Source of the DNA: a virus
IMG/VR virus record: IMGVR_UViG_3300029448_000013
Coordinates: 1 to 64,000 of that record
Reading direction: 5' to 3' (one strand)
Length of the DNA stretch: 64,000 bases
The notes beneath the pieces were generated by a model. It ran no database searches and was not told the origin of the DNA. It saw only the letters and a program-made list of their open reading frames with translations. Of the stretch, positions 18,044-44,764 are shown piece by piece. Both the position numbers and the translations under genes were made by a program. Position 1 is the stretch's first letter. Every line of letters begins with the position of its first letter.

Positions 18044-18045
18044 TG

Positions 18046-23874: not shown

Positions 23875-23960
23875 TTTTCTTTCCACCTACAAAACAAATC
23901 AACAAACAAACGTGTTGATGGAATAAAACTTGGATAGCGTTACCTGTTTGGTTACGCCTC

Positions 23961-25502
23961 CTAATTACCTGTCGCACTACCGCCAAGAGTCATGATTGCC
24001 CACTTACCCTTGTAAGTTGCAGTCGTCAGAGTCCTTGCTGTGATTGAAACCTCAACCTCTACTGGCCCTTTATCTTCAGGGAATGGGATAGTAACTGCAT
24101 TGATTAAGTAATCAGCAAGTTGAATGTCAATCTCTTCACCTGTGTCTTTGGTGAATTTCAATGTCAAAGCACCAGTTGATTCGTTAGCATTTCTCAACTC
24201 ATCCCATAGTTTCGTATCTGTTATGAGCATAGTCAAAGTCATTTCATATGTCCTTTGGCCGGGTAGATGAGCAGATGCAATTTCTCTGTTGTAGTTACCA
24301 ATGAACCTCTGCGGTAGTAGGTTATTGTTGATGACAAGAGAGCCACCTTTTACCCTAGCCAAAGACTGACCAAAGACTTTTATTTCTCCATCAGAGAAGA
24401 GGAATGGATAGTTGTCTGCTAGAGTAGAACTGTAATTTACCATTCCCCTACCATTCTCTGCATCACTGAGAGCAGTTAGAGAAGCATTACCACCAAGAGG
24501 CAAATAGTTAGCAGGTGGGTCAAAGGCTCTTCTTGAAACTAAATCCATTGTACACTTTAGTTCTTGACCCTCTTCAAAGTTAAGAGTGAGAGTATTGACC
24601 TGACATCCTGTAAAGATTCTAGAGTACATGTTCTCATTTGGAGTTAGAGAATCCAATACCGTTGTATTAGTATGTCCTGATTTGCGATATACTACATCAA
24701 GAGCGAAAGATGGAAGAACATCATCGTTCGCTTCAGAGAAAGTATAGTTGAACATGTCTGTCCCATTGTATACCTTCAAGTTACCAATAGTCAAGTCAGA
24801 ACCACCAGCATCTATCTCAGGGTAGTTGTTGTGTTCGTAAGACCTGAGTATTCTGTCATCATCTATATCGACAACAACTGCGTTCTCTCCGTTTGAAGTG
24901 TCTAGAGTGGCATGAGTTCCTGAAAGAGTGTAAGATAGTTTACCTAATGCGTAATACAACCAAGAACCATTGTTGAGAGATACATCTAGTGAACCTCCGC
25001 TTACAGTCTCTGCTCCCTTGTACTGATAGTCGAAGTTCCTACCACCAGCAGCAGCAAGGTTGAGTTGCTTCATCTCCACCTCTACGCTTGGTGGTGTGAA
25101 TGTGTTGACTAGTCCAAGCCAACCATCAGAGTGTATTCTAGGATTAGTACCGCCATCTCTAGAAGCATAGAGAGGCGCACCAAACGAAAGTATAGTCGCA
25201 TCCATAGTTCCTGAAGTTACTGCACTGCCGTTAGAGTCAACTGGTGCAGAATCTATGACTATCGTTGTTGCGGTGTTGTCTACGACAGTTCGATATGAAG
25301 TTGCATTGTTTGAGGCTAATGCTCCAATCTTCACAGTGCAGCCGATATACAAATCAGGAACTAAGTGAACTAATCCCGCTTGACCAGTTGATAGAGTTAA
25401 GGTAGTGCTACTTGAAAGAACAGCGTCTTGAAAATACAAGTCCAATTCAGGACTCATTCCTACTTGTGCATTTGCTCCTACGAATACTTCATTGCTTACC
25501 AT
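23961..25502 (-). CDS. Major tail tube protein
   Basis: Tube-like pattern (WLGLVNTFTPP, FTGCQVNTLTLNF, LVINNNL, RTYEMTLT) and position before the chaperone genes. Confidence 0.8.
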   Translation of the reverse strand: MVSNEVFVGANAQVGMSPELDLYFQDAVLSSSTTLTLSTGQAGLVHLVPDLYIGCTVKIGALASNNATSYRTVVDNTATTIVIDSAPVDSNGSAVTSGTMDATILSFGAPLYASRDGGTNPRIHSDGWLGLVNTFTPPSVEVEMKQLNLAAAGGRNFDYQYKGAETVSGGSLDVSLNNGSWLYYALGKLSYTLSGTHATLDTSNGENAVVVDIDDDRILRSYEHNNYPEIDAGGSDLTIGNLKVYNGTDMFNYTFSEANDDVLPSFALDVVYRKSGHTNTTVLDSLTPNENMYSRIFTGCQVNTLTLNFEEGQELKCTMDLVSRRAFDPPANYLPLGGNASLTALSDAENGRGMVNYSSTLADNYPFLFSDGEIKVFGQSLARVKGGSLVINNNLLPQRFIGNYNREIASAHLPGQRTYEMTLTMLITDTKLWDELRNANESTGALTLKFTKDTGEEIDIQLADYLINAVTIPFPEDKGPVEVEVSITARTLTTATYKGKWAIMTLGGSATGN

Positions 25503-25512
25503 TTTCTATCCC

Positions 25513-26043
25513 TCATGTCGCTCTTGCAAACCGCTTTAGTTCCACTCCAATCTTATATCCCAATAATCTTTTCCCTCTATCATTCGCTTCATTTCTAGAT
25601 GTTAGTCGTATTAAATCAGCATCTCCTAAGACCGTACTTGTGGTATCGGCGGGTGTTGCATAGACAGTTGGCCTAAAAGCATTGTTTTCCAAGACGTATC
25701 TTACTATCTTGTATAATGCCTCTAATCTGTCTCTTGAAAACGTGTTACTGGTCATGTCTCTTCGGTGTAAAACACGCAAATGTAATGTTAAACCAAAGTC
25801 TTCACTTCGAGCAGAATAATCAATCGTTGGATAGGTCGTAGAAGCACTGTCCTCAAAAACTATTATCACCGATTCTGAATCGATGTCTACTCTCCTACCC
25901 TCTTGAGGTTCTATGGAACGAATGTCAATGAACTTAGGAGTGGCATTATGACTTGCAGTTATTGTACCTGCACTGACTAAAGCAGAGGCTGATGATGACC
26001 AATTATCTTGTAGAAGTCTAATGATTAAAGTTACTTCATCCAT
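25513..26043 (-). CDS. Putative tail terminator/completion protein
   Basis: Size and position between adaptor and tail tube. Confidence 0.55.
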   Translation of the reverse strand: MDEVTLIIRLLQDNWSSSASALVSAGTITASHNATPKFIDIRSIEPQEGRRVDIDSESVIIVFEDSASTTYPTIDYSARSEDFGLTLHLRVLHRRDMTSNTFSRDRLEALYKIVRYVLENNAFRPTVYATPADTTSTVLGDADLIRLTSRNEANDRGKRLLGYKIGVELKRFARAT

Positions 26044-26225
26044 ATCTTAATCTTCTCCTTGAGTTCTTTTTCATATACCTTCATAAATTTCTCTGTGGCA
26101 TTTTTCGTCACCTGTTCATCTGAGAAACTAATATCAAAACCAATTTCATCTTGCATCTCCTTGAGAAGTTCGTTTCTTTCCTTCTCTATCTTTAGAATAG
26201 CAAGATAGTCTTTTGTTGCACTCAT
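26031..26225 (-). CDS. Hypothetical neck-region protein
   Basis: Coupled small ORF in the structural operon. Confidence 0.55.
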   Translation of the reverse strand: MSATKDYLAILKIEKERNELLKEMQDEIGFDISFSDEQVTKNATEKFMKVYEKELKEKIKIWMK

Positions 26226-26229
26226 GATA

Positions 26230-27306
26230 TCACACAATGAAATGTATTATGTCCTTTTTACCATTCAAAATTGCGTTTGCCTCTTCCAACAAAATATCAT
26301 GTTTGGTTTTCAGGTCTATGTTAGAACCAGTTTCTGCAATAAGTATTGAGTTGTCATCATGTCTTATCACTTCAGCCGCAACTAATTTGGTTGTAGCGTC
26401 TTGAATAGTAGCAGGAACTCTAGACTCACCACTAACATATGTTACTCTAATAGAATGTGAATGTAGATATGGATAGTTCTTCAAGAAGAATATCTTACCA
26501 TCTTTATTGATTGTCCAATAGTCTCCTAATCTTCTTTGGTCTTGGTTGTCTGTGAACTGAGTTACTGTCCCAACTGTGGATGAGATTGTGCAAGCAGAAC
26601 CATCATCTCCCATTAGAAGAGATGAGATTACAACAGTATCCCCTGCTTCACTATCTGTCGTAGCATAGAAGAAATCAGAGATATTGACGGTAGTTGCTCC
26701 TTGAGCAGTCACAGTCTTAGCAGTAGTCTCACCTGTGAACTTAGCAGTTTTATGCGGAAATACTTCGTTGATTGCATCTGCTATTTGACTAGCAGTTGTC
26801 TTAGGCCCATAGTTATCAAAGAAATCTACTCCTTTGTCTAGATGGAATGTATATGCTCCAACTCCTAATATTATTCTCCAAGAACCACTTTCAGGGCCAC
26901 TTGGAACTTTAACCTTAGCAGTCGCAGAAGCCAAGTCAACATACTCTGTTCCTTGCCATACCTCTAGACGTACTAATTTCTGAACATTATTTCTATCTAA
27001 CTGAACAAATCCAATGTAATCCTTGAATCTGTTTACTGGATACGCACCCATTCTAAACGCTTCAAACCCATGAAACTCATGATGATAGATAACAGGACGG
27101 TAAGAATGTGCTACAATGTCATCAACTCTTTCTTCTGCTCTTCTGATTAATCCACCTACTTCAGCAATAGATGGAGTTGTAGACGAACTAAATGCGGCTA
27201 TTTGTAGCAACTGAGAAACATCAGAATGTGTAGTATAAAATCCTCTTCCTTGAGAGTAGTTTGGATTAATGTTTGTGAAGTCACTTGGGGAGGATAGTTT
27301 TGGCAT
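26230..27306 (-). CDS. Head-tail adaptor protein with inserted domain
   Basis: N-terminal YTTHSDV...LIRRAEERVD and C-terminal IRVTYVSG...VPATIQDATTKLVA are gp6/gp15-like adaptor patterns. Confidence 0.75.
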   Translation of the reverse strand: MPKLSSPSDFTNINPNYSQGRGFYTTHSDVSQLLQIAAFSSSTTPSIAEVGGLIRRAEERVDDIVAHSYRPVIYHHEFHGFEAFRMGAYPVNRFKDYIGFVQLDRNNVQKLVRLEVWQGTEYVDLASATAKVKVPSGPESGSWRIILGVGAYTFHLDKGVDFFDNYGPKTTASQIADAINEVFPHKTAKFTGETTAKTVTAQGATTVNISDFFYATTDSEAGDTVVISSLLMGDDGSACTISSTVGTVTQFTDNQDQRRLGDYWTINKDGKIFFLKNYPYLHSHSIRVTYVSGESRVPATIQDATTKLVAAEVIRHDDNSILIAETGSNIDLKTKHDILLEEANAILNGKKDIIHFIV

Positions 27307-27311
27307 AATAT

Positions 27312-28658
27312 TCAACTCCTGAATCTACGGGCTTTAGCCATGAAGGTCTTAACACCCTTGAGTATATCAGATATGCCCTTTATTTTATCCTTATCAGCCA
27401 CAACGAACGCACCTTCTTCTGCAAGTCTTAACTCTCCTTCTTTGTTTAAAATCAAACTATAATTAAGAATTCTCTTTTCTTCAACTGAAAGACTTCCTCT
27501 ATCTTCTTCTTTTCCTGTTGTGCTTTTTGATGGTTTTATTTTTCCACTCTTGAGAGGTTTATAGTTAGAGATAGAAACTACAAGAGTCATTTTACCTACA
27601 TCCAAATCTAGATAGGTTCTTGTTAATTCTGAAAGAGATGGGTCTTGACCTCTTGTTTTTTTATCTCTATCCCTAATTCTTCTTGCTACCATAAAATTAG
27701 ACCTTTCTAATAGATAAATTGCTATCTTGTCTAATTGCTCGTCATCTAAATCTAATAACGTATGCAAGTAAGAGATAGCATCGTTTCTACCACCCGATTC
27801 ATTAACCTCATATTTCTTTTCATGTATGTTGTACGTTAAGGGTATTTCATCGTGTGGTGGTTTAGAATCCATGCCATAAGAAATTTCTAATTTGTTAGGC
27901 TTACCTTTCAATACAAAATCATCAAACTTTATTTTATTGAGTGTAACTGTTTTATTTTTCTTATCATTTTCAATGTATTGAAAGTGTTCACCCATGTTTG
28001 GGTCTGCCGTTATTCCATCATCTTCTAGTAAAGAGATTAGATATGCTTCTAAATCCCATGTGTATGATACCCTACCTGACCTATCTATTTCATCATTAGA
28101 TGTCCTATAATCATCAATCTTATTCGCATCAAAGAGACTTTTATTTTTATCAACCTTATCCATTACTTTAGAGCCTTTACCTTCATAGGTTTGCCCTAAA
28201 TAAGCAGGTAGCAACAGTTGTTCAAAGGTTACTTTTTTCTTAATCAAATTATTTACTATGCTGTTATCTTTCTCAGGCCCAAATAACTCAAATACTGCTG
28301 CACCTTTTTTTGCACTGAAGTTACTTTCCATTGCATTGATAGTTTCAACTACTGGAAGTTTGAGTGCTTTCTCTATTAATACCTTCATGTATTTTTCATA
28401 AGTTTCATATTCTTCTTTAGATTGAAAATCTTTTTCAGTCAAGGACATTAAAATTCTAAAGTCTCTTTTAATATATTCTTTTTTGAACTTTCTTGTATCT
28501 TTAATTTTTTTTTGAAACATCTTGAGAACTAAAGTTCGCAATAGAACAGAAGCATCGTCTGTTGGATTTACTGTTGCACTGTTTACTGATGCATCGTCTA
28601 AGTTGAATATTGTATCCTTGAAGTCGCTATCATTATTCTTGTCGATAGTTAAACTCAT
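27312..28658 (-). CDS. Hypothetical Lys/Asp-rich protein (448 aa), AT-rich gene
   Basis: Long ORF with GGTGG SD; no recognisable motif. Confidence 0.75.
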   Translation of the reverse strand: MSLTIDKNNDSDFKDTIFNLDDASVNSATVNPTDDASVLLRTLVLKMFQKKIKDTRKFKKEYIKRDFRILMSLTEKDFQSKEEYETYEKYMKVLIEKALKLPVVETINAMESNFSAKKGAAVFELFGPEKDNSIVNNLIKKKVTFEQLLLPAYLGQTYEGKGSKVMDKVDKNKSLFDANKIDDYRTSNDEIDRSGRVSYTWDLEAYLISLLEDDGITADPNMGEHFQYIENDKKNKTVTLNKIKFDDFVLKGKPNKLEISYGMDSKPPHDEIPLTYNIHEKKYEVNESGGRNDAISYLHTLLDLDDEQLDKIAIYLLERSNFMVARRIRDRDKKTRGQDPSLSELTRTYLDLDVGKMTLVVSISNYKPLKSGKIKPSKSTTGKEEDRGSLSVEEKRILNYSLILNKEGELRLAEEGAFVVADKDKIKGISDILKGVKTFMAKARRFRS

Positions 28659-28672
28659 ACATTAAATTCCAC

Positions 28673-29380
28673 CTATGCCAACCACTTTGCCCAAGCGACA
28701 CCCTTACTCAAAGCACCTGCTAAACCGAGACCGCTTTGAGGTGGTGTATACGATGGTTGACCAGTAGCGGGGTCAATCCAGTACGGATTATTGAACTGGT
28801 CATAACCAGTAGGAGGTATAGGATATCCACTACCATTGTTCATAGCCATTTGTTGAGTCATCATTTGTTGGTTCATTCCACCCATAGCAGGTGCGCCTTG
28901 TATCTGTGCAGGATTCAAACCTTGTGGATTTCCTACTTGTTGTTGTTGCATTCCTCCCATTTGTGCTTCTTGAGAGGGAGATGAGAATCCCTGTGACTCT
29001 AGGTATTGTTGCTTTGCCATTCTTCTTTGCATTATGACTTCTGAGTTAACTGCTGTTTGTAATAGATTAACTATATCCAAATCAATGTTTTCTTGTGTAA
29101 TACTTGTAAACTCAGACAGTGAATCAGGATGTATTTCTAAATCTCCATTAGTGTTTGAAACAAATTTCATTTTTACTAACATTTGACTTACTACCCTAGT
29201 TGTAACATCTTCCATCATTTTTTCAAATGCATTTAAGAACTGTTCTCCGTGATATTGAAAGAACTCTTCAACATGATTTTCCTGCAATGTTAGAAGATTA
29301 TTAGTCATTTTAAATTGTGATTGCCCCATTGTATTCATCTGCGAAGACAGCGCAGAGTTGCTTGTTCCGAACATACCCAT
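28673..29380 (-). CDS. Gln/Met-rich protein with C-terminal amphipathic helix
   Basis: Low-complexity Q/M/G/P region; ends GLGLAGALSKGVAWAKWLA. Confidence 0.75.
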   Translation of the reverse strand: MGMFGTSNSALSSQMNTMGQSQFKMTNNLLTLQENHVEEFFQYHGEQFLNAFEKMMEDVTTRVVSQMLVKMKFVSNTNGDLEIHPDSLSEFTSITQENIDLDIVNLLQTAVNSEVIMQRRMAKQQYLESQGFSSPSQEAQMGGMQQQQVGNPQGLNPAQIQGAPAMGGMNQQMMTQQMAMNNGSGYPIPPTGYDQFNNPYWIDPATGQPSYTPPQSGLGLAGALSKGVAWAKWLA

Positions 29381-30060
29381 CAGTTCCCCTCCTCCGGTGT
29401 AGTAATCTTAACGCCTTCGGTCAATAAAGATTTAACTTTAGCCGACATCGCTGCGTTTTGTATCATTAGTGAATATAATTGTTCTTCTTTTGAAGAAGCG
29501 TCATTAGCAGGAGGAGTAATACCCCAACCCAATGAGGTTAGTGAATTGATATCCTCTTGTTTCAATTGTGTTATTGGCCCTGACTTCACAAGATTTACAG
29601 GGTTAAGACTTCTAGCAGATGGGATATAGGCACTAAAAGAAAGTCCATGTTCTTCTGCCAATATCTGCTGTTCTAACATTTCATATTGCATATGTATTTG
29701 AGCATGTTTCTCACAATAAGTTCCTCTCATTGGATATCCCTTACGTACCTTGTGCAGTGGAAGTGGTGGTCTTCTAGTATCGTTAGAAGTCCATATCTTC
29801 TGTGTTCCACATATTACACATCTATCTTTGATGTTGTATTTGAAACTGTAAGGCACTTTCAGCATTGTTTTCTTTTCAGGTTTCAATACTTTGATAATTT
29901 CCTTCAATTGTTTCTTTGGCTTCATTGATTTATACTCGTATGGCATTATCGGCCCTGCTGCTCTTGCAGCAGTTAGCCTATCCATAAACGGGTTAGGGCC
30001 AGCATTTATTGTTGCGTTCGTTGCTCCTATCAAACTAGGGGGTGTAAATTGCATAGACAT
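29380..30060 (-). CDS. Putative Zn-binding protein
   Basis: CVIC...CEKH ligands; translationally coupled to the next gene. Confidence 0.7.
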   Translation of the reverse strand: MSMQFTPPSLIGATNATINAGPNPFMDRLTAARAAGPIMPYEYKSMKPKKQLKEIIKVLKPEKKTMLKVPYSFKYNIKDRCVICGTQKIWTSNDTRRPPLPLHKVRKGYPMRGTYCEKHAQIHMQYEMLEQQILAEEHGLSFSAYIPSARSLNPVNLVKSGPITQLKQEDINSLTSLGWGITPPANDASSKEEQLYSLMIQNAAMSAKVKSLLTEGVKITTPEEGN

Positions 30061-30121
30061 TTTATTTTTTCTCCTATCAATCTAAGCCTACCTTGCGGTG
30101 AGACCTAAGTAGTCTGACGTA

Positions 30122-30793
30122 TCAGTAGTCTTTTATCATTGTTAATACTCCACGATAGACCATTTCAGAATCAGACTTAGCACTCACTATGTATTTGTGG
30201 CATGGAATACCCGTTTCATTTAACTTCTGAAGTCCGGGTTTGAATGATGCAAATATTGGGTGGTCTTCTATTTTTCCAGCATGTGGATACTTATCTTTCC
30301 AAAGGTCATACTTGTTTGCCCACAGACCAACTGCTAACGGGTAGTCATGGTCTTGTTTCTTTTTCTTTCTTCCACCAATTGTGTAATATTGATTACATAT
30401 TGTATCTACAAGAAATGTCCAAGACAACTGTTGTTCGATATCATAGTGCTTATCTAAATGCCTATCATCAAATAGGAATACAATGTATTTGACATGTCTT
30501 TCCCTCATATCTCTAACCCATTCTTCCCAATATACTGTCTGTCCTCCTATGTCAGCAGTCTTGATTGTATGAGCATCCCCGTCTAACTTTACAAATTTTC
30601 TAGTTGCTCTATGTCTCCCAACAGTTCGTTTTTGTATTTCAGGAACTTCACCCCTAGTCATCAACTGTCGATGCAGTGTTGTTTTACCTGCTTTGCTTGC
30701 TCCATAAATCCCGAAGTTAATAGCGTGGAGGCGATTATACAGTTTATTCATTGCCTCTACAATGAGTATTGCAAACCCTGCCATTACCGACAT
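30122..30793 (-). CDS. Ras-superfamily (Arf-like) small GTPase
   Basis: G1 GASKAGKT, G2 RTVG, G3 DIGGQ followed by W, G4 NKYD, G5 SAK; hydrophobic/amphipathic N-terminal helix. Confidence 0.9.
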   Translation of the reverse strand: MSVMAGFAILIVEAMNKLYNRLHAINFGIYGASKAGKTTLHRQLMTRGEVPEIQKRTVGRHRATRKFVKLDGDAHTIKTADIGGQTVYWEEWVRDMRERHVKYIVFLFDDRHLDKHYDIEQQLSWTFLVDTICNQYYTIGGRKKKKQDHDYPLAVGLWANKYDLWKDKYPHAGKIEDHPIFASFKPGLQKLNETGIPCHKYIVSAKSDSEMVYRGVLTMIKDY

Positions 30794-30847
30794 ACTAACA
30801 CCCCTTCAGTGAGTCGGATGTCGGAGAGCATTAAAATGGTTGAGAAT

Positions 30848-31069
30848 CTAATGCCCGCCCCAAAGAGAGGAAAGTAGATGCCAACCTCCACTGTATAGAT
30901 TGATTCCCCATAGAGAAATAGCGTGTCCTACAAAGAAACTAACAACAGAAGATATTATTCCCCAAAGCCAAAACCTTGCTCTTAGAAACCACACATCAGC
31001 AGAGTGCGCTCGTTGTAAATCATATGCGAGAGTGGATTCATCCATCCCGAATAAGATTTCACTTACCAT
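30848..31069 (-). CDS. Small membrane protein
   Basis: Hydrophobic segment FWLWGIISSVVSFFVGHAISLWGI. Confidence 0.75.
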   Translation of the reverse strand: MVSEILFGMDESTLAYDLQRAHSADVWFLRARFWLWGIISSVVSFFVGHAISLWGINLYSGGWHLLSSLWGGH

Positions 31070-31074
31070 TCAAA

Positions 31075-31503
31075 TCACTCTTGGAATCCTGTCAAGAAAG
31101 TAGGACTAACTGTTTGCACTTCTTGTTGCTTTTGTAATGTAGGAAGGTTTGGGTCTCCATACACTGTTTGTCCAACACCGAATTGTTGTTGGAAACCTCT
31201 AAATGATTCCCTGACTCTCTTTCGGTTTTCTTCATCTCTTGCCTTTCTGTTCCAGTATGAGTTGATTTGTCTTTGAAGTAGGAAGTCTTCAATGTAGTCG
31301 TTAACAAACAAATCAAACAGTGCTTTTAGAATGACTATGCCACCTACGGTTAATACCCCGAATATCATAGCAACTGGATAAGAACCGTATGCGTTGACAA
31401 AAGTTGTGCCATATTGTGAGAAGAAGTAAACATTTACTCCGCTAACTGCTCCAACAAATAGAACAGTCATTATTAGTCTAGTATCTGTATCTATGCTTGG
31501 CAT
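31075..31503 (-). CDS. Two-TM membrane protein with charged cytoplasmic tail
   Basis: Two hydrophobic helices followed by a charged/Q-rich tail; GAGGTGA SD before ATG 31503. Confidence 0.75.
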   Translation of the reverse strand: MPSIDTDTRLIMTVLFVGAVSGVNVYFFSQYGTTFVNAYGSYPVAMIFGVLTVGGIVILKALFDLFVNDYIEDFLLQRQINSYWNRKARDEENRKRVRESFRGFQQQFGVGQTVYGDPNLPTLQKQQEVQTVSPTFLTGFQE

Positions 31504-31513
31504 AGTAATCACC

Positions 31514-31810
31514 TCAAGCAAAGTTAACAGACACAGTTCCAGTGCCAGTAATCTGAACGAATATTCCGTTGGCTACTAGAACACCATGTAGGTCTTGCTC
31601 AATGGTTTGAGCAGTTCCTCCTGCATGTAATACTAGTCGAGCAACCTCCTTCTTGCTCGTTGTTGTGGAGTTGTCACTGTCCCATATCTTGACAGTCATT
31701 ACAGCGTTTGCTGTTGATGTAGCGTGAACACTCATTATCTTAGCATGATGTTTTACTGCTACTGTGCTTGTAGAAAGAACTCCGGTACTGTTGCAGGTAG
31801 GTGATGCCAT
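31514..31810 (-). CDS. Small beta-rich virion protein (possible decoration)
   Basis: Beta-rich, ending GIFVQITGTGTVSVNFA; downstream of the capsid genes. Confidence 0.55.
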   Translation of the reverse strand: MASPTCNSTGVLSTSTVAVKHHAKIMSVHATSTANAVMTVKIWDSDNSTTTSKKEVARLVLHAGGTAQTIEQDLHGVLVANGIFVQITGTGTVSVNFA

Positions 31811-32295
31811 CACTCTGCCTCCGACAATCTCTCTACTAGGTCTGCTTTCTTTCCTTCTGTGGAAAGACCCCTTTCTGTCAAAACAACCTTTAGTTCCTTA
31901 ACGGTTAGTTCTGACCAATCCATATCCAATGGTGCTTCACCATCTTCTACGGCTTCTTCTACCACTGGCTCTTCGACTACGGGAGTCTCTTTGATGAGTT
32001 TAGGAATGAATGACTTCTTTGCTGAAGGGAACATAACTGCTCTTACTGCTTTAGCATCTCCTTCGACATTGAACTCTTTCTTCAATAAGTTAAGTAGATA
32101 GTCATTCAATTGTAGTATCTCTGAAGAATCTGAAGCATCGAACTCTATTGTTATTCCTGAGTCTCCTAGCATTCCTATTGCTATTCCTAACGGAACTTTC
32201 GTTTCTTCTTGCGCTGTTAATGCATATGTCTGACCGCCTCTTCTCAAAAGAAGTGGCCCTGACACTCTATGTCTTGCTAACTTTACCTTTGCCAT
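31810..32295 (-). CDS. Protein with C-terminal SAP/HeH DNA-binding domain
   Basis: WSELTVKELKVVLTERGLSTEGKKADLVERL is a canonical SAP motif. Confidence 0.85.
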   Translation of the reverse strand: MAKVKLARHRVSGPLLLRRGGQTYALTAQEETKVPLGIAIGMLGDSGITIEFDASDSSEILQLNDYLLNLLKKEFNVEGDAKAVRAVMFPSAKKSFIPKLIKETPVVEEPVVEEAVEDGEAPLDMDWSELTVKELKVVLTERGLSTEGKKADLVERLSEAE

Positions 32296-32325
32296 ATTAT
32301 CACCTTATTTTTGTTGTTGGTAGTA

Positions 32326-32350
32326 ACCCCTGCCCTGTTACGGGCAGAGG
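32326..32350 (-). terminator. GC hairpin after the capsid/decoration genes
   Basis: CTGCCC-GTAACA-GGGCAG stem-loop in the intergenic space. Confidence 0.45.
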
Positions 32351-32385
32351 CCACTACTTTACGTTATCACTTAATCATTGTGATT

Positions 32386-32739
32386 TCAGAGATTACCGTA
32401 TACACGGACTCTGACAGAACCGCCGTTAGCATCGTTAGACAACGTAGCGTTAGTTCCGTCTAATGCAGTGAACATGAGAGCAAAGGATGTTCCACTCTCA
32501 TAAGCACCTGCGGCACTAATCTCTACTAATGGCAATACTGCGTTGGCGTTATCACTGCCTGTGATTGATACACTATGAATGGATGATAGGCCAAGAGCCG
32601 AAGCAGGTATTACTGACCCTGCTGCGACTATTGACGTTACATCTATCAGAGCATCAACAACATACTCGTCACCTGCGACCTTTGGGGCAGTTACGCCCTT
32701 ATGGTCAGCAAGCAAAGTAACTGTGTATGCTAATGCCAT
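32386..32739 (-). CDS. Probable capsid decoration/minor capsid protein
   Basis: Immediately after MCP with GAGGTGA SD; small and beta-rich. Confidence 0.6.
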   Translation of the reverse strand: MALAYTVTLLADHKGVTAPKVAGDEYVVDALIDVTSIVAAGSVIPASALGLSSIHSVSITGSDNANAVLPLVEISAAGAYESGTSFALMFTALDGTNATLSNDANGGSVRVRVYGNL

Positions 32740-32750
32740 TCTTAATCACC

Positions 32751-34112
32751 TCACGCACTCTTGATGTTGGTTATCTTTCCTTGTCCCTTGAAGAACGAAC
32801 ATCCGGTCTCAGCCATAGTTCGGTACATTCCTTGGTTTCCAAGTTTGCCAACACCGAATGGGTTTCCACTAGTGATACCATCCTCGAAATACTGAGTAGG
32901 CTTCATTACAGACAACCACATGTGGTCTGTGTCTAGAATGAGTATGTCACTCAGTTCGTTGGTTGTGTTGCTACCAGTTGATGGCATGTCCTTGGTTGGA
33001 ATGATTGGTATGTCATAGTATGTTGCAACTCTGAATCCAACCTCTGCACCCTTAACTCCACGAACTCCGTTGTGGGTAGGTACGATTTCTTTCCTGTCCA
33101 TGAACCTCTCTTGGCTTTGTAGCAAGTCAGCAAGGTGCTGTACGGTATCGTATCCTGTTAGGATAACTTTCGGGTTTCCGCCGTTCTGCCTGATTCTCCT
33201 AATCATGTCGTTAAGCATGGTTAGTGTTAGAACTCTAGCATCGCTAGCACCATATCCTGCACCGAAGTCAACCTCTGCATCCAAGAAGGAAGCAGTTCCA
33301 GTTGCAGCGTTGCTGGATACAGAGACAGTTCGGCTAGTACCGAATAGTCTTACTACATCAGCAACAACAGCAGAGTTGTCTGCGTTGTTAGCACCAGTGT
33401 CCAATAGGTTTGCGTTGTACATAGCAGCGATTTCACCAGCAGATGAAACAATCTTTAGTAGAGAAGTATAGTTTCTCTCGATTGTTGTTGCAGTACCGTC
33501 ATCGTATCTCTCAAGAGGCATAACTAGCATCTTGCTCTGAGTCTCTGCGTGTAGTTTACCCATGTCCTCACGAACGATTGCACGAATGTCACCAACACCG
33601 TCATCAATTGCAGCAAGTTCCATTCCAAGTTCTGAGAACTCGAATAGATGTGCAACAGTCTTTGGACTAATGTATAGTTTCTCATACTGTGGTGCAATAG
33701 GTGGAATATCGTTTCCAGTTCCTAGAGTTGCGTTCTCACCAACACCACCGATTTTGTCTGCTCTTGGTGTGTCTGAACCTTCTGCGCCAGTTCCTATTCC
33801 GAATGCAGAACCTGAACCTCCTTCTGCTCTGCTCTTTAGAACTCTCCATCCACTAGATGTGTATGGTCTCTTTGCGAGCATAGCAAGAGGGTTAACCTCT
33901 TGGTTTAGCATTGACCATACTTTCTGTCCGTAAAGAACATTGTATAGGTCTCCTAACCCACTAGCAGCAGAAAACGGGTTGCTTGCTGCATCGTGGGGCG
34001 TTCCGAAACCACCAACGACACCAGCCGCTTTCAACAGGGCGTTACCTGATGCGCCAGCATAGCCGTATGTGGCTGCTTCTAAGTCTTTTACTGTGTTAAT
34101 ATATCCACTCAT
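32751..34112 (-). CDS. Major capsid protein (HK97 fold)
   Basis: Follows the protease; patterns GQKVWSMLNQE, PKTVAHLFEFSE, LTLTMLNDMI, GFRVATYYDIPIIP. Confidence 0.9.
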   Translation of the reverse strand: MSGYINTVKDLEAATYGYAGASGNALLKAAGVVGGFGTPHDAASNPFSAASGLGDLYNVLYGQKVWSMLNQEVNPLAMLAKRPYTSSGWRVLKSRAEGGSGSAFGIGTGAEGSDTPRADKIGGVGENATLGTGNDIPPIAPQYEKLYISPKTVAHLFEFSELGMELAAIDDGVGDIRAIVREDMGKLHAETQSKMLVMPLERYDDGTATTIERNYTSLLKIVSSAGEIAAMYNANLLDTGANNADNSAVVADVVRLFGTSRTVSVSSNAATGTASFLDAEVDFGAGYGASDARVLTLTMLNDMIRRIRQNGGNPKVILTGYDTVQHLADLLQSQERFMDRKEIVPTHNGVRGVKGAEVGFRVATYYDIPIIPTKDMPSTGSNTTNELSDILILDTDHMWLSVMKPTQYFEDGITSGNPFGVGKLGNQGMYRTMAETGCSFFKGQGKITNIKSA

Positions 34113-34113
34113 T

Positions 34114-35343
34114 TTAGTTCACCTTCCTTGCGAGGTTGTGTATGTCTCCCCATGACATCTCAGCCATTGCGTCAGCAGTGGTTGGGAATCCTTCAGGTAG
34201 AGAGAAAGCGACTTCTGTTGCTTTCCTTATCTCATCATCCTTTGCGGTAAGAGATTTGCGTAGTTCTGCAAACTCTTCTTTCAAAGCCGCTACTTCTGTT
34301 GAAGCATCGTACTCTGCTCTCTCTGCTGCTGATTTCTTAACATCGAGTTCAGCAGCGAATCTGTCAGCAAATGTCTTCGATAGGTTATCGTAAGCCATTG
34401 CTTCTAGTTGCTCTGCTTTGTAAGCCTCGTAAGCCTTCTCCACATTCTCAGCACTTAAGTCAAGAGTAGTAAAGTCCGTACCTTCTAGACCCTTAGAGAC
34501 AGATAGCGCAGCAGGAGCAGCCTTTGGCTTTCCGCCACTTACTACTTCTTCTCCGGCCTCGTAATCTCTTGTCGAGTCCTCATCGAGAGCCTTATCCATG
34601 CTCTCAAGTTCGTCTTCCTTCATAGACATTTTATCTTCCATGTCCATGCTCTCCACTTCTTCTTCTTTCATCGTTTCTTCTTCATCTTTCATTTCCATTG
34701 TCTCCAATTCACTTTCTTTTGTTATAGAGTCACCAGTGACTTCTCTGACTTGCGTTAGCAATCCATTGAGTTCTTCCAGTGCTTTCTCCAATTTTTCCGT
34801 CATATTTCTACCTCCTTTCTCATGTTTTAGTATGTCGAATTTTGCTTCGGGGTTAATCCCCTTCTCACAGATAGTAACTTCATGCAACTCTAGGTTGTCA
34901 ATCTCGTTGTATTCTCCGTATTCCTCTGATTTTCTTTCTCTTTTAGAAATGGCTTGTCCACCTATGCTAAATGACCGAAGAGTTCCTTTTCTGATACTCC
35001 TGTTGATTTCTTTTGCTTTTTCTATGTCATCTCTCATTTTGATGACTACATAGAAGCCAACACCATCTACTCCTGTTTTGTGTAATACACCATTAGTATC
35101 TCGATACTGTTCAATAACTTCTCCAACTTGAACATTAGAATGATTGGACATAACGTTCCTGTAAGATTTTTCAGTCATGAAATCTTTAACAGCCTTTTCT
35201 AATGCTTCTAACGTGATTAAATCATTTTGTTTGTCAACTATTTCTATTGATGCATAACCACCAATCACTAGATTATCAGACTTAAGTATTTGAAAACTAG
35301 CAGGGCTATCCTGCCTAATTAATACTTCCTGCTGTGCAAACAC
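34114..35343 (-). CDS. Prohead protease fused to scaffold
   Basis: GYASIEIVDKQND, H..VG, SFSIGG, LHEVTIC..GINP (HK97-type protease) followed by an acidic coiled-coil scaffold. Confidence 0.9.
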   Translation of the reverse strand: MFAQQEVLIRQDSPASFQILKSDNLVIGGYASIEIVDKQNDLITLEALEKAVKDFMTEKSYRNVMSNHSNVQVGEVIEQYRDTNGVLHKTGVDGVGFYVVIKMRDDIEKAKEINRSIRKGTLRSFSIGGQAISKRERKSEEYGEYNEIDNLELHEVTICEKGINPEAKFDILKHEKGGRNMTEKLEKALEELNGLLTQVREVTGDSITKESELETMEMKDEEETMKEEEVESMDMEDKMSMKEDELESMDKALDEDSTRDYEAGEEVVSGGKPKAAPAALSVSKGLEGTDFTTLDLSAENVEKAYEAYKAEQLEAMAYDNLSKTFADRFAAELDVKKSAAERAEYDASTEVAALKEEFAELRKSLTAKDDEIRKATEVAFSLPEGFPTTADAMAEMSWGDIHNLARKVN

Positions 35344-35361
35344 AACACAGCACCTTAAACT

Positions 35362-35380
35362 CTTACTATATTAAATAGGC
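35362..35380 (-). promoter_or_regulatory. Putative TATA promoter of the capsid operon
   Basis: TATTTAATATAG about 25-35 bp upstream of the protease start codon. Confidence 0.5.
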
Positions 35381-35382
35381 GT

Positions 35383-37947
35383 TTATTCAGGTAATTGTAA
35401 ATTACTATACTTGTCCTTGGTGATGTCGATAATTCCTTCATCGGATGAGTCTTCTAACATCTCTTGTTTCTTTCCTGTAAATACTATCCAAGACTTCTTT
35501 TCATCTAGTGGAACAACTCGGAAATGTATTCTAGATTGAAACTTGTCTCCTTCCATTCTATATTCATGGTATCCATCTCTTTGAACACCAAAGATTAACT
35601 CACCACTATCTAGTATTTTACTGCTGTCTATCTTCTCTGAAACCATTGCAGGGAATTTTCCTGACTTACCAAACAAATCGAATATGTCTTCAGGTTTATC
35701 TATATCAATCAACCAAGCCATTCTTTTGTCATCTGTCTCGATTATAAAATCGATGTTTCCATCTTCTCGTTGCCTAACCTCAAACTCTCCTGCTAGTTCT
35801 TCTTCTTCGTCTTTTTCTATATTCTCAGGAGACACATCGAATCTGTTTGGAGAAAGGAAAACAAAAGCGTCTTGATTTTTCAACCAAGCAAGTAGTTCTT
35901 TTGGTTTACCTTCAAAGATTTCATCATATGCGTCTTCCTCTGTAATCCTGAGTTTTTCTTCTAGTTCGTCAAACTCTATTGCTTTTTGATTGTCTTCTAT
36001 GATTTTTCTAATCGCAACCCTTAGTTTTGACTTTCTAGATTTCATCAGTTTCTCTAGTTGACCTTTCCAGTCATCCATATTGTAAAGAGCATTCTTCTGC
36101 ATCAGTGAATCACCATCGAACCCATAGACAGTGAAACCTTCTAAGTCATGTTTGCAGATTATCTCTGCTTCACCGTGAACGTAATCTGTAACAATATACT
36201 TCCTTATCTTCTTCTTGTTCTTTCTCTCTCTTTGAAGTTCTGCTATCACAGTAAGAGGATTAGCCAAATCTGATGGTTTCATGAACGGATGTCTAGGCAC
36301 TAGTGCTTTCTTAGTCTTAGATGCCAGTTGTTCTAGGGTCTCTAGTTTATCTGATTCATCTACTTCAGGCAACTCTATCACTTTAGCAGAATAGAGGCTG
36401 AAGCCCTTTCCTTTCTTAGTAACCTCATCAACCTTAACACGAATGATTGTGCCTATGTCAACCTCAACTTTAGTATTCAATGCCTTACCAACAGGAAGAT
36501 AGTTCTTATCATCAAGTTCTATTGTCTTCATCTCTCTTGTTTGTTCCGCAGTTAATGGGCCAATTCCCATAGTGTAGGAATGTAGGCCGCTTTTTGTTTT
36601 CTTATCCTCTAAAACTATTACATCCAAATCAACGAACTTCTTCCATTTAATCCACTTCGGGTTTTTCTTTCTACCCATGTAGTATGTTGATTCTATGTCT
36701 TTAATGACAACACCTTCTGATGTAGGCATGTCCATGATTTTCTCTGCGTATTCTCCGACTTCTTTCATAGAGTCAGCGATTCTTGTATCTTTCTTAGAAG
36801 GAAATGCCAACTCATCCGATGAGTGTTGTGAGTATTGGTAGAACATAATGTTGATTCTTTCTCTCAAAGGTTCATCCATCATATCCTTGCCTTCGTGTTT
36901 CATCACATCAAACACATGCGCTCTGAGTTTTGTATCGGGTATCTTCTTCTTGAAGATGTGAGTAATCACATTCGCTCTATGTAGCGCATCATCTCCTTGG
37001 AAGAGAAGAAGTTCCCCGTCTAATATACAGTCACCAATTCCCTTCTTTTCCATTTTCTCTACAATCTCAGGACACTTATCTGTTATGTCCTTTTGATTAT
37101 ATGAGTATATTTTGATATTGTCTCCTACTTTGTGAATCTGTATTCTCATCCCGTCATATTTTTCTTGAACAACGTATTCCCCACTTAGACCCTTGATGTC
37201 TTTCATGTCATCAAGTTCAAAGATACGATACATTGGTTTGTTAGGCACAATAAAGTCGATATCTTCTTTCTCTTCTTCTGACTTTGCAATATCTATATCT
37301 TTCAAAGATTCCCACTTGTCTTCGGAATAACTTTCATTATACACTTCTTTCAGTAGAGAAAGTGCCTCCTTGAATTTTCCTTTGACTCTCTTTGAATCTT
37401 TGTCATCTCCGTAATGTTCTATGATGTAAAGTGGAATGTCTTTCTCCTCTAAATCTAATCCCATAAATCCTTGAGTTATTTCATCAGGTTTCAATTCGTT
37501 CTCCTCCCATGCTTTCTTGGGTATTGGATTTGAGTGGCTTCTCAATGCATAGTGAACGAAGGCTGCAAAGGTTGCTTTATCTTCCAACAATACCTCTAAC
37601 ACCTTGTCGCCTAATTGTTTTGAGAATGGGTCTGATGCACCCTTTGATTCAAATCTCATCCTCTTTACATCTTCATAGATTCTCCTAGCAAGGAGACTTT
37701 CAGCATCATATACCTTATTGTCAAAGAGTTCTTTTTCTTTGATATGTTCTTTCAGTTCAGAAGCAAACTCTCCTAGTCCGTCATACTCTTCACGTATGGA
37801 CTTGACAGTTGACTTCCACTTCTTACCGTATTCCTTCGGATTTTCCTTTGCAGATAGATATGCATAACGTACTCTCTCAAAGAAATCTAAAACTCTTTTT
37901 GATAGAGCCTTAGTTTCCTTTTCAAAGGACACGCCTGATGTTGTCAT
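35383..37947 (-). CDS. lig: ATP-dependent DNA ligase with extra N- and C-terminal domains
   Basis: Motifs QEKYDGMR, DGEL, FDVM, EGVVIK, WIKWK; the C-terminal ~140 aa resembles the LigD phosphoesterase fold. Confidence 0.9.
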   Translation of the reverse strand: MTTSGVSFEKETKALSKRVLDFFERVRYAYLSAKENPKEYGKKWKSTVKSIREEYDGLGEFASELKEHIKEKELFDNKVYDAESLLARRIYEDVKRMRFESKGASDPFSKQLGDKVLEVLLEDKATFAAFVHYALRSHSNPIPKKAWEENELKPDEITQGFMGLDLEEKDIPLYIIEHYGDDKDSKRVKGKFKEALSLLKEVYNESYSEDKWESLKDIDIAKSEEEKEDIDFIVPNKPMYRIFELDDMKDIKGLSGEYVVQEKYDGMRIQIHKVGDNIKIYSYNQKDITDKCPEIVEKMEKKGIGDCILDGELLLFQGDDALHRANVITHIFKKKIPDTKLRAHVFDVMKHEGKDMMDEPLRERINIMFYQYSQHSSDELAFPSKKDTRIADSMKEVGEYAEKIMDMPTSEGVVIKDIESTYYMGRKKNPKWIKWKKFVDLDVIVLEDKKTKSGLHSYTMGIGPLTAEQTREMKTIELDDKNYLPVGKALNTKVEVDIGTIIRVKVDEVTKKGKGFSLYSAKVIELPEVDESDKLETLEQLASKTKKALVPRHPFMKPSDLANPLTVIAELQRERKNKKKIRKYIVTDYVHGEAEIICKHDLEGFTVYGFDGDSLMQKNALYNMDDWKGQLEKLMKSRKSKLRVAIRKIIEDNQKAIEFDELEEKLRITEEDAYDEIFEGKPKELLAWLKNQDAFVFLSPNRFDVSPENIEKDEEEELAGEFEVRQREDGNIDFIIETDDKRMAWLIDIDKPEDIFDLFGKSGKFPAMVSEKIDSSKILDSGELIFGVQRDGYHEYRMEGDKFQSRIHFRVVPLDEKKSWIVFTGKKQEMLEDSSDEGIIDITKDKYSNLQLPE

Positions 37948-42072: not shown

Positions 42073-43041
42073 CTAACCCCTCCTCTTGAACCAGCCATGA
42101 AGACCCTCATCTTTTTCTCGGCTAAACGTTCCAGCCTTTCTTTTCTTCGGTTTCCCGCCTCTTCTCTTGTAATCCTTACAAGCAGAACAAGTTGGACGAC
42201 ATCTTCTCTTTGTTCCTTTTGAAGCATCTTTTCTACCACACGATTCTGTTCCGGGTTTGTCATCATCACAAGAAGCACAACTAACCCAATCTTTCACTAG
42301 CATATCTTCCCAAGATTTTTTGACATCCCTATCTAAATACGCATCAGCAATTAGAAGCCCTGCTTCCTTTCCAATTTCGATGTCGCTTGGATAATGGCTG
42401 CCCATTTTAACTCTTGATAGTGATATCTTCCCGGCAAGTTTCATCAACTCCTCCTCTTTGTCAGGATACTCCTTACCTAAAATCTTGGCTAATGCATAGG
42501 CTTCCATCGCATGACCGCTTGGAAAGGATGGACTATCATCTGTATCGGTTGTGGACTCTATCTTGTCTGAAATCTCATATGGTCTTGGTCTTCCGTATTT
42601 CACTTTGAGTTTGATTGTATGGATATCGATATCCTCAATCAAATCCTCTCTATCCTCCTTACTCTCACCAACAACCTTCAACATCATCTCGTTATTGCTT
42701 TCGTCTAGGTCTTCCATTTCTTCATCATCAATCTTGTTAGCGTTCATCATAGCGAGAACTTTAGGAAGTTCCTTCTCATTCTCAGGATGTTTATAGTCAG
42801 GGAAGTCTACATCGAATGAAGGCTCAGACTCAAACAGTCTCCTCTTTTCCTCTGACAGATTCTTAGGAGTGTATTTTGATTCTGCTTTCTTCACCGAGTT
42901 ACCCCAATTAGCAGCACCAACCTTTCTACACTGTACTAATGCACCTGAAGCATAAGCAGAAGGCCACTTCTTGTATCTGCTTCTGACCTTGCGATAACAA
43001 GCATCTTTCTCTTTTTTTAATTCCTCAAACCAAAGAGTCAT
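42073..43041 (-). CDS. PAP2-superfamily phosphatase flanked by basic Cys-containing domains
   Basis: Motifs KVKYGRPRP, PSFPSGH, SRVKMGSHYPSD; start MTLWFEELKK at 43041. Confidence 0.8.
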   Translation of the reverse strand: MTLWFEELKKEKDACYRKVRSRYKKWPSAYASGALVQCRKVGAANWGNSVKKAESKYTPKNLSEEKRRLFESEPSFDVDFPDYKHPENEKELPKVLAMMNANKIDDEEMEDLDESNNEMMLKVVGESKEDREDLIEDIDIHTIKLKVKYGRPRPYEISDKIESTTDTDDSPSFPSGHAMEAYALAKILGKEYPDKEEELMKLAGKISLSRVKMGSHYPSDIEIGKEAGLLIADAYLDRDVKKSWEDMLVKDWVSCASCDDDKPGTESCGRKDASKGTKRRCRPTCSACKDYKRRGGKPKKRKAGTFSREKDEGLHGWFKRRG

Positions 43042-44763: not shown

Positions 44764-44764
44764 T

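Follow-up and report, generated by a model that had tools for sequence, protein, structure and literature searches.

In Euryarchaeota, membrane vesiculation is driven by a GTPase operon, ArvA-ArvB-ArvC (OapABC) of Haloferax volcanii, in which a small GTPase with an N-terminal hydrophobic/amphipathic helix, proposed to be a membrane binder, is encoded together with a Zn-ribbon protein (PMC10927574). The use of host ArvA/OapA by enveloped archaeal viruses has been raised as a speculation in one review (PMC10791045). In PMC11529989, the genome with Arf-type GTPases in a mobile-like region is that of an Asgard archaeon and not of a tailed virus. The locus described here is a block of five genes with a small GTPase at its center, carried by IMG/VR virus record IMGVR_UViG_3300029448_000013, of which positions 1 to 64,000 were analyzed and are referred to as the window. 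In contrast to the Haloferax operon, the partners of the viral GTPase include two membrane proteins and a Gln-rich protein, and no Pfam match to ArvB (DUF2073) or ArvC is found beside it. On sequence comparison we rate as new a virus-specific family of Arf-like GTPases standing in a new gene partnership. The word GTPase is absent from the accessible main text of PMC5434244, PMC11706807, PMC10160649, and PMC8651126, whose supplementary tables may list one. Literature searches returned no paper joining magrovirus with GTPase, and a search for GTPase with Marine Group II virus capsid returned pelagimyophage work only, as judged by its listing. The automatic JGI label "GTPase SAR1 family protein" stands on 4 among the 120 homologues listed, and annotation pipelines have therefore already seen the domain.

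The five open reading frames (ORFs), tightly packed on the minus strand at 28673–31521, encode a protein with two transmembrane (TM) segments, a protein with one, the GTPase, a Cys/His protein, and a Gln-rich protein (genes 1–5, Table I). A sequence-only reading of the window had located all five correctly; the end it gave for the first, 31503, is an ATG seven codons inside the TTG start at 31521. The spacing from gene 1 to gene 5 is +5, +54, +61, and −1 nucleotides (nt), the block overlaps the gene upstream by 8 nt, and 14 nt separate it from the gene downstream. A Shine-Dalgarno-like GGGGTG precedes the start of the GTPase, and AGGAG precedes that of the gene 4 protein.

The GTPase displays the complete series of G1–G5 motifs that the sequence-only reading had described, as read from its translation, together with a Ras-like predicted fold and 351 homologues at E ≤ 1e-3. 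Given these homologues, the fold, and the invariance of the P-loop, D81, G84, N160, and K161, the ORF is real and not a chance one. Conservation was counted over 44 diverse family members. G31, G36, and K37 of the P-loop are invariant, with T38 and T39 present in 43 of the 44 members; D81 and G84 of switch II are likewise invariant, and W92 is found in 43. The switch-II position 85 varies (Q 25, E 10, D 4, H 4, A 1). N160 and K161 of G4 are invariant and D163 occurs in 43 members, while in G5 column 204 is S in 32 and A in 11, and column 205 is A in 34. Outside the G motifs, D109, R111, P152, and F184 are invariant, and R99, D95, W92, and H178 are present in 42–43 members. Switch I carries an Arg-Thr pair at positions 56–57 that is present in both clades described below; in passing, the pair may be likened to the cis arginine of Gα.

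Two family features outside the G motifs could suit docking on a membrane surface. The N-terminal helix had been called hydrophobic and amphipathic. Its hydrophobic character stands: a hydrophobic N-terminal stretch is present in 44/44 members, the best 11-residue Kyte-Doolittle window having a median of 1.96 and a minimum of 1.25. Its amphipathicity is modest, with a mean hydrophobicity of 0.50 and a moment of 0.29 over residues 2–19, and no 19-residue Kyte-Doolittle window reaches 1.4, which leaves the helix below the TM threshold. The second feature is a polybasic loop; the 25 residues preceding β-strand 5 contain a median of 8 Lys/Arg versus 1 Asp/Glu across the family.

The AlphaFold2 (AF2) model of the GTPase, built from a 35-sequence alignment, has a predicted local distance difference test score (pLDDT) of 72.7 and a predicted template modeling score (pTM) of 0.73. 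Switch I (residues 35–61) is modeled at pLDDT below 50, and the RKKKK sequence lies on a β-hairpin insert. Foldseek searches of the PDB gave at least 500 matches at E ≤ 1e-3, G proteins throughout among the matches listed, with Gα, Rab, Ras, and Rho chains ranked without preference and Arl8b at rank 30. Alignment with VIA-align separates them further: the top tier, spanning one Z unit, contains Giα (14.1), an Asgard Rag-like GTPase (13.9), Arf6 (13.9 and 13.6), Gsα (13.8), SR-β (13.5 and 13.3), and Sar1 (13.1), and Rab and Ras chains fall below it at 11.4–12.2. All G motifs together with the modeled G-domain fold identify the protein as a Ras-like (TRAFAC) small GTPase, one that looks nucleotide-competent from its conserved motifs, and the model leans mildly towards the Arf/Sar/SR-β/Gα side.

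By curated thresholds the window protein belongs to no described family. It scores below the Pfam cut-offs (in parentheses) for Roc, 22.3 (27); MMR_HSR1, 20.9 (21.9); Arf, 16.9 (22.3); and SR-β (PF09439), 12.6 (25), and no NCBIfam cut-off is passed (TIGR small_GTP, 25 bits against 42.5). Weak Pfam matches across the 44 members are to Arf in 18 (counted at E ≤ 0.01, best 9.8e-5), Roc in 17, MMR_HSR1 in 13, Ras in 6, GTP_EFTU in 5, and SRPRB in 4. A family profile searched against PDB sequences gave marginal matches only, to 8oun_A ("GTP-binding protein", E 0.015), Arl8/Arl10 (0.016–0.06), and KRas (about 0.03); a single-sequence PDB search returned an antibody, a spurious match. Against 1.84 billion cluster representatives, the profile finds 86 proteins at E ≤ 1e-3, so the family is narrow.

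The most distant full-length matches of the profile lead to a bacterial gene set in which 60 of 67 records are labeled as Chloroflexota lineages; the scan of cellular genomes used a four-sequence alignment. These Arf-like GTPases (for example L166:7875-8579) are the closest relatives found outside viruses. They align to the viral family at 99.4% in hhalign (E 2.7e-21, 185 columns) and share a DxGG(E/Q)..W..W switch II, IIFMxDH and NKxDxW motifs, and an N-terminal extension. They differ in being chromosomal (on contigs of up to 3.7 Mb), in lacking the four partner genes nearby, and in lacking the polybasic loop, which is missing from them in the hhalign alignment. All 11 bacterial members scanned exceed the Pfam Arf cut-off, at 26.9–38.1 bits with near-full model coverage, and one bacterial relative passes the SRPRB cut-off. 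In a quick IQ-TREE phylogeny, for which five library proteins (P0130–P0160) were labeled viral by assumption, the 44 viral-labeled rows group with one long-branched protein of unknown origin (SH-aLRT support, from the Shimodaira-Hasegawa-like approximate likelihood ratio test, of 98), and the main bacterial group is separate (support 99). Three distant relatives (P0197, P0199, and P0205) have, as read by eye, a long hydrophobic N-terminal stretch resembling a TM anchor; for P0176, no relative was found among viral contigs.

The name Arf-like, as proposed in the sequence-only reading, is therefore partly supported, by transitive homology, since the nearest cellular relatives pass the Arf cut-off, and Arf6 and Sar1 in the structural top tier are in keeping with it. 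Likeness to Arf/Sar1/Arl proteins (PF00025) extends to the GxxxxGKTT P-loop, the DxGGQ followed by Trp of the window copy, an acidic/Arg motif (FLFDDRH) after strand 4, and the N-terminal hydrophobic helix. Membership in the Arf family itself does not follow: the window protein is below the cut-off, weak matches to Roc are about as frequent as those to Arf, and the family does not conserve the switch-II Gln. Arf proteins have a Gly2 that serves N-myristoylation and a G5 of the CAT type; here the N-terminus is MSVMAG... and G5 is SAK. The polybasic loop and an HPIF..F segment are family-specific inserts, and no GTPase-activating protein (GAP), guanine nucleotide exchange factor, or coat partner is recognized beside the window GTPase. 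Four traits thus set the viral family apart: the SAK G5, the absence of Gly2, the variable switch-II Gln, and the polybasic loop, which the bacterial relatives lack. From these sequence comparisons, the viral family is a divergent offshoot of prokaryotic Arf-like GTPases and not an Arf member by curated threshold.

Small GTPases had been called uncommon in tailed viruses, which agrees with the absence of any tblastn match to this one in 50,697 phage records and with structural matches in BFVD, the best 50 of which all come from giant viruses. Rab/Ras/Ran proteins of giant viruses are also virus-encoded and share the fold (mimivirus Rab, 5xc5, Z 12.2). They serve viruses of eukaryotic hosts and are recognizable as host-derived genes, in contrast to the family described here, which stands apart in a fixed five-gene block. 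SR-β resembles the viral protein in its architecture, a hydrophobic anchor at the N-terminus followed by a G domain related to Arf, in its Z scores of 13.5 and 13.3, and in the weak SRPRB matches; it differs in that the viral protein is below the SR-β cut-off, has no SR-α/SRX-like partner, and has in the window an N-terminus that is not a full TM segment.

The two proteins encoded ahead of the GTPase are, as had been read, small membrane proteins by hydropathy. Gene 1 has hydrophobic segments at residues 14–35 and 45–77, followed by a charged, Gln-containing C-terminal tail rich in Lys, Arg, Asp, and Glu; on topology alone (two TM segments and a charged C-terminus) it corresponds to a class II holin. 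It has no Pfam or PHROG family. Proteins 1, 2, 4, and 5 have no Pfam match at or above the gathering cut-off, the listed matches being far below it (E 0.03–0.28), and none of the five block proteins matches a PHROG head, tail, or connector family.

The Zn-binding protein of the sequence-only reading is the product of gene 4, in which a Cys/His pattern is indeed conserved: across 22 sequences, invariance holds for C81, G85, G108, T114, and H119 and almost for C116, where one third-lineage genome (L160, below) has Ser. Metal binding itself is putative, a candidate property read from this pattern. The same 22 sequences contain no invariant Arg, and an Arf-GAP-type arginine finger is for that reason not proposed. 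Gene 4 has no Pfam, PHROG, NCBIfam, or PDB family. Predicting a complex between the gene 4 protein and the GTPase, the latter with GTP and Mg and both supplied with an alignment, gave no answer (score 0.01, mark 0.32).

Gene 5 had been described as Q-rich with a terminal amphipathic Trp/Lys helix. The composition (12.3% Gln) and the sequence AWAKWLA at the end of the tail stand, the latter identical in 14/14 clade-1 rows; the helix is modeled at a pLDDT of 35–42 with a low hydrophobic moment of 0.19, so that its amphipathic character is weak, and clade 2 has a Gly/hydrophobic tail instead. The AF2 model as a whole is poor (pLDDT 55.8, pTM 0.25). Residues of about 190–210 (window 28751–28810, NNPYWIDPATGQPSY) are modeled as a small β-hairpin at pLDDT 79–86, in clade 1 only, which we take to resemble a WW-type motif. 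Q-rich segments of low complexity are present not only in gene 5 but also in the gene 1 tail and at the C-terminus of the clade-2 gene 4 protein. Profile searches of the PDB with the gene 4 and gene 5 alignments gave noise only (E ≥ 0.024), a protein atlas search with the two proteins gave best scores of 0.78 and 0.81, below lead level, and PADLOC returned nothing relevant for the GTPase and nine relatives.

Synteny of the five genes had been set beforehand as a test that could refute the idea of a common module, and the genes proved to be co-conserved as a unit in close loci, in a second clade, and in a third lineage. A scan of IMG/VR gave 214 loci, of which 80 were kept, with GTPase identities of 73–99%. 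In these, tblastn recovers the 73-residue protein, the GTPase, and the gene 4 protein in all 80, against 77 for the 148-residue protein and 75 for the Q-rich one; gene order is constant, and the misses fall at contig ends. For clade 2, 80 loci were kept of 365 relatives from a mixed-alignment scan (GTPase identity 27–36%, loci spanning ±10 kb). Here tblastn with the window proteins finds the GTPase in 80/80, gives two weak matches to the gene 4 protein, and nothing else. The layout is the same: an ORF of about 150–200 residues with one or two hydrophobic segments and one of 73–95 residues, mostly with a single segment, precede the GTPase, and a Cys/His protein of 300–345 residues and a Q-rich protein of 200–230 residues (10–18% Gln) follow it. 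The GTPase ORF was located in 79 loci, and by size and position 70 of these have the pair ahead of it and 78 the pair that follows. Most clade-2 cassettes (L081–L159) have a sixth ORF of about 80–105 residues, with two hydrophobic segments, 3′ of the Q-rich gene; it has no counterpart in the window.

Comparison of clade 1 with clade 2 by hhalign gives 99.9% for the GTPase, 96% (E 3.9e-9, 88 columns) for the gene 4 protein, 93.9% (E 1.6e-7, 98 columns) for the Q-rich protein, 18% (E 1.3e-3) for gene 1, and 2.7% for gene 2; of ten mismatched controls, nine reach at most 2.7% and one reaches 42% over 13 low-complexity columns. By these alignments, cross-clade homology is established for the GTPase and the gene 4 and gene 5 proteins, weak for gene 1, and not demonstrable for gene 2. 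The third lineage has two representatives: L160 is a complete genome of 140 kb that has terminal repeats, and L213 is a contig of 9.7 kb in the bin of an archaeal metagenome-assembled genome (MAG). Both carry all five genes, shortly after a thermosome gene, and joint profiles match all five in L213 (E 4.3e-9, 0.0044, 1.4e-62, 1.9e-41, and 4e-17 for genes 1–5). The thermosome (Cpn60/TCP-1) gene itself, at L160:6846-8378 and L213:4059-5609, is one gene ahead of the cassette.

Genomes of the other clades that are 92–100% complete contain exactly one GTPase match in 5/5 cases. In the four other-clade genomes with a recognizable portal gene, the block lies 11–15 kb upstream of it on the same strand, and in one clade-2 genome (G062) it is also ahead of the terminase. 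The window block, by contrast, is found past the capsid gene, at 12 kb downstream of the portal. The clade-2 capsid gene falls outside the ±10 kb loci. When three complete genomes were searched by tblastn, 16 of 63 window ORFs were matched in one or more of them, with identities of 42–47% for the portal, 37–38% for the terminase, 34–37% for the capsid, and 31–35% for the GTPase. In the 140-kb genome G063, tblastn matches a single window gene as a whole, that of the GTPase, and besides it an 82-residue piece of a giant ORF. The block is single-copy and core to these viruses, and moves as a unit within the late region.

Profiles of the four partners were also run on 67 loci from cellular genomes that encode relatives of the GTPase; they match the virus-like contig L213 only, and by these profile searches the association of the GTPase with its partners is virus-specific. 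The GTPase is matched in one of 61 genomes of the order containing the L213 MAG, namely that MAG, which argues against recent capture of the gene from that lineage. OapC (PF09845) has no match in six frames of the 73-kb virus record, in a search that matched the control genomes, and none in the same 61 genomes (0/61).

The parent record is a linear virus contig of 73,262 bases with a completeness estimate of 76%, and all genes in its structural region are on the minus strand (Table I). The order terminase, portal, ligase, protease, capsid fits a magrovirus-like head-tail module with an embedded ligase; a DNA ligase embedded in the structural module is a feature of magrovirus groups A and B, according to the accessible part of PMC5434244. 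The best named matches of the portal are HVTV-1, HCTV-1, and HCTV-5 at 27–28% identity, followed by a Methanomassiliicoccales virus, and the papers on magroviruses name the same kinship. The homologues come from marine collections, Tara included, and sequencing runs containing part of the stretch carry, where an organism label is present, that of a marine or seawater metagenome. In view of the embedded ligase, the haloviral relatives of the portal, and the marine homologues, the window is treated as part of a magrovirus-like tailed virus, an assignment made through features described in papers and HVTV-1-type relatives. The host is probably an archaeon of Marine Group II (Poseidoniales), taken from the literature and from relatives. 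The sequence-only reading had placed the block between capsid and neck genes: the capsid gene is upstream, and the tail genes are downstream, past four genes of which none has a "neck" assignment. The SAP-domain protein encoded between capsid and block was recovered by tblastn in 62 of the 80 close loci, and short pieces of the giant ORFs are common to clade-2 and third-lineage genomes by tblastn.

Table I. Features of the five-gene block and its surroundings (window coordinates; residue numbers refer to the respective protein)
Feature	Position	Strand	Basis or remark
Gene 1, membrane protein, 148 aa from TTG (142 aa from ATG at 31503)	31075..31521	-	ORF, hydropathy
Gene 2, 73-aa Trp-rich protein (6 Trp), one hydrophobic segment, residues 33-56	30848..31069	-	ORF, hydropathy
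Gene 3, 223-aa small GTPase, virus-specific family	30122..30793	-	ORF, motifs, model, homologues
GTPase N-terminal hydrophobic helix (predicted), residues 2-22	30728..30790	-	AF2, hydropathy
GTPase G1/P-loop GASKAGKTT, residues 31-39	30677..30703	-	Translation
GTPase G3/switch II DIGGQ, residues 81-85, then W89, W92	30539..30553	-	Translation
GTPase polybasic loop RKKKK, residues 142-146	30356..30370	-	In family-specific insert before strand β5
GTPase G4 NKYD, residues 160-163	30305..30316	-	Translation; guanine-specificity motif
GTPase G5 SAK, residues 204-206	30176..30184	-	Translation
Gene 4, 226-aa Cys/His knuckle protein	29380..30060	-	Stop overlaps gene 5 start
Gene 4 putative metal-binding core C81-x2-C84 ... 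C116-x2-H119	29704..29820	-	Pattern, conservation
Gene 5, 235-aa Q/N/M/G-rich protein	28673..29380	-	N-terminal MG(M/L)FG, central folded core, hydrophobic C-terminal tail
Gene 5 C-terminal tail SGLGLAGALSKGVAWAKWLA	28676..28735	-	Ends ...KGVAWAKWLA
Large terminase	46112-47548	-	Terminase_6C; first in transcription order of the structural region
HNH-like ORF	Between terminase and portal	-	Family scan
Portal	43138-44772	-	After HNH-like ORF
PAP2-superfamily (lipid phosphatase-like) protein	42073-43086	-	Weak DUF5872 match; between portal and ligase
ATP-dependent DNA ligase, 854 aa	35383-37947	-	Between portal and protease genes
Prohead protease	Between ligase and major capsid genes	-	
Major capsid protein	32751-34112	-	Upstream of five-gene block
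Three small genes, one with SAP domain	Between capsid gene and block	-	
SAP protein, 161 aa	31810-32295	-	C-terminal SAP DNA-binding domain, 1.7e-11; second gene downstream of capsid
Four genes without family assignment	Between block and tail tube-like gene	-	
Tail tube-like protein	23961-25502	-	Downstream of block
Tail assembly chaperone, then tape-measure gene	25502 down to 21317, including tail tube-like	-	Downstream of block
Three giant ORFs, >1431, 2118, and 2345 aa	2-4294, 4294-10650, 11012-18049	-	Downstream of tail genes

From these sequence features, the block is tentatively read as one functional module that would act at the host cytoplasmic membrane late in infection, with release as its most likely job; we give this reading somewhat less than an even chance. 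A membrane-associated module switched by the GTPase is suggested because a switch protein with membrane-suited features always stands between two hydrophobic and two partner proteins. In such a module the GTP-bound GTPase would dock on the membrane via its hydrophobic N-terminal helix and polybasic loop, beside the two-TM hairpin with its charged cytoplasmic tail and the one-TM Trp-rich protein, and would organize two soluble partners, the Cys/His-knuckle protein and the Q/N/M/G-rich low-complexity protein with its hydrophobic tail. The membrane might thereby be remodeled or breached for release of progeny, with the nucleotide state as the switch. Membrane binding, GTP dependence, partner contacts, timing, and a purpose in egress are all steps that we infer. 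The fuller version, in which a virus-specific Arf/SR-β-like switch drives a membrane-remodeling machine and nucleates Q-rich partners for virion release, is speculative and rather doubtful.

A role in egress is favored, with tentative confidence at best, because no other release system is evident here or described for Magrovirales, gene 1 is class-II-holin-like, and the clade-2 block lies ahead of the terminase. Lambda and some other phages keep their lysis genes ahead of the terminase. No Pfam or PHROG lysis family, holin family, or adjacent endolysin was found for the five block proteins and their neighbors, nor any other lysis candidate among the 30 window proteins scanned with Pfam or the 20 scanned with PHROGs. 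The likeness to a class II holin cassette lies in the topology of gene 1 and in the position of the block beside late genes, in clade 2 just upstream of the terminase; the block differs in being conserved far more than is usual for holins and in having no endolysin. To our knowledge, a GTPase is part of no known holin system. For Poseidoniales viruses, a holin-based system is proposed only for Adrikavirales, which are not magroviruses, according to the accessible part of PMC11706807.

Several observations weigh against release as the job of the block. Conservation of the GTPase (31–35%) is near that of capsid and terminase, although rapid evolution is usual for lysis genes; a role in assembly or one linked to replication would suit this level no less well. 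The position of the window block among head and tail genes is odd for a lysis cassette. With its modest moment and hydropathy below the TM threshold, the helix could be an oligomerization or packing helix; the varying switch-II Gln makes a hydrolysis "timer" uncertain; and the lack of an invariant Arg leaves an Arf-GAP-like finger role of the gene 4 protein unsupported. No envelope-degrading enzyme was identified, in scans that covered part of the window ORFs.

The main rival of egress is a membrane-anchored assembly platform or virus factory, in which the two membrane proteins and the GTPase would tether capsid initiation, DNA packaging, or head-tail joining to the membrane, with the Q/N-rich proteins as a local scaffold or condensate. 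T4, which initiates its prohead on the inner membrane via gp20 and gp40, provides an analogue. Such a platform would account for the place of the window block within the morphogenetic module, with capsid-proximal genes on one side and tail genes on the other, for that of the clade-2 block just upstream of the terminase on the same strand, for a conservation comparable to that of hallmark structural genes, and for the Q-rich low complexity of gene 5, the gene 1 tail, and the clade-2 gene 4 C-terminus. However, the complete genome of HVTV-1, the nearest named relative, whose morphogenetic module is related (portal 27–28%), has no match to a GTPase profile that recovered every positive control; in that genome, eight small genes separate the capsid gene from the tail chaperone. 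The block is therefore not needed to build such a virion. Its position relative to the head genes moreover differs between clades, and none of its proteins matches the PHROG head, tail, or connector families. An assembly platform is on balance unlikely.

Less probable still is a soluble GTPase acting in morphogenesis or regulation, as a chaperone, checkpoint, or regulator of a host process, its helix serving oligomerization and the membrane proteins being functionally separate. This would be in line with a helix under the TM threshold, with the weak or not demonstrable cross-clade homology of the membrane proteins (18% and 2.7%), and with bacterial relatives that have a similar N-terminal extension without the partners. 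It is at odds with the membrane pair, whose sizes, hydrophobic pattern, and place directly ahead of the GTPase are retained in three lineages, with window gaps of only 5 and 54 nt; the polybasic loop, moreover, was added specifically in the viral family. A role at the host surface or in entry (superinfection exclusion, envelope or lipid remodeling, or delivery of a viral membrane factor by export or insertion, the GTPase serving as a membrane-anchored receptor switch like SR-β) is the least probable, for although SR-β chains rank in the top structural tier (Z 13.5 and 13.3), SRPRB matches weakly in 4/44 members and above the cut-off in one bacterial relative, the N-termini of P0197, P0199, and P0205 resemble a true TM anchor, and the same virus carries the PAP2 lipid phosphatase-like gene, no SRX/SR-α-like or translocon-like partner appears in the Pfam and PHROG scans, and superinfection-exclusion genes are usually variable accessories rather than a cross-lineage core.

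How tailed archaeal viruses exit without a holin-endolysin pair is a standing question, for which the block provides a concrete candidate. It is compact, single-copy, and cross-lineage, and is centered on an assayable enzyme, so that the membrane biology of these uncultivated viruses becomes accessible to heterologous expression and biochemistry. If release is indeed its role, the block would be the first egress system identified for magrovirus-like viruses, which are among the most abundant archaeal viruses of the surface ocean. Prokaryotic viruses would then have a counterpart of vesiculation by Arf/Sar1 or ArvA, brought by the virus into hosts whose sampled relatives are without ArvC (0/61). 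A virus-specific branch is in any case added to the prokaryotic Arf-like GTPases, which bears on the debate about GTPase-driven membrane remodeling before eukaryotes, as put in the accessible part of PMC10927574. The GTPase is further a sensitive marker, finding a lineage in which tblastn missed terminase, portal, and capsid.

Thirteen sequencing runs recorded as RNA contain part of the window stretch. In one of four RNA-library runs examined, a 44-kb contig spans window positions 23900–37000 at about 99% identity (126 differences in 13.1 kb), and two more libraries of the same marine metatranscriptome study have shorter contigs over parts of the GTPase, gene 4, and gene 5. A contig of 44 kb in an RNA library may represent carried-over viral DNA, an RNA origin being indistinguishable from a DNA one. 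A scan for sigma-70 promoters and terminators gave 19 versus 26.3 and 6 versus 6.5 in shuffles, under a sigma-70 model that is wrong for an archaeal host.

In clade-2 locus L099, from genome G062, a P-x-D-x-A-W/F-x-x-L-K motif recurs in seven neighboring ORFs, mostly at the N-terminus (ORF starts 2452, 3191, 4055, 5736, and 8068, and within 6985–7890 and 13630–14784), and from its sequence looks like a targeting or processing signal; a regular-expression search found none in the window. A DUF5872 protein is encoded near the cassette at L099:6985-7890. A few kb upstream of the cassette lies an HMG-CoA lyase-like gene (HMGL-like, 1.8e-18; L099:4587-5540), possibly an auxiliary metabolic gene.

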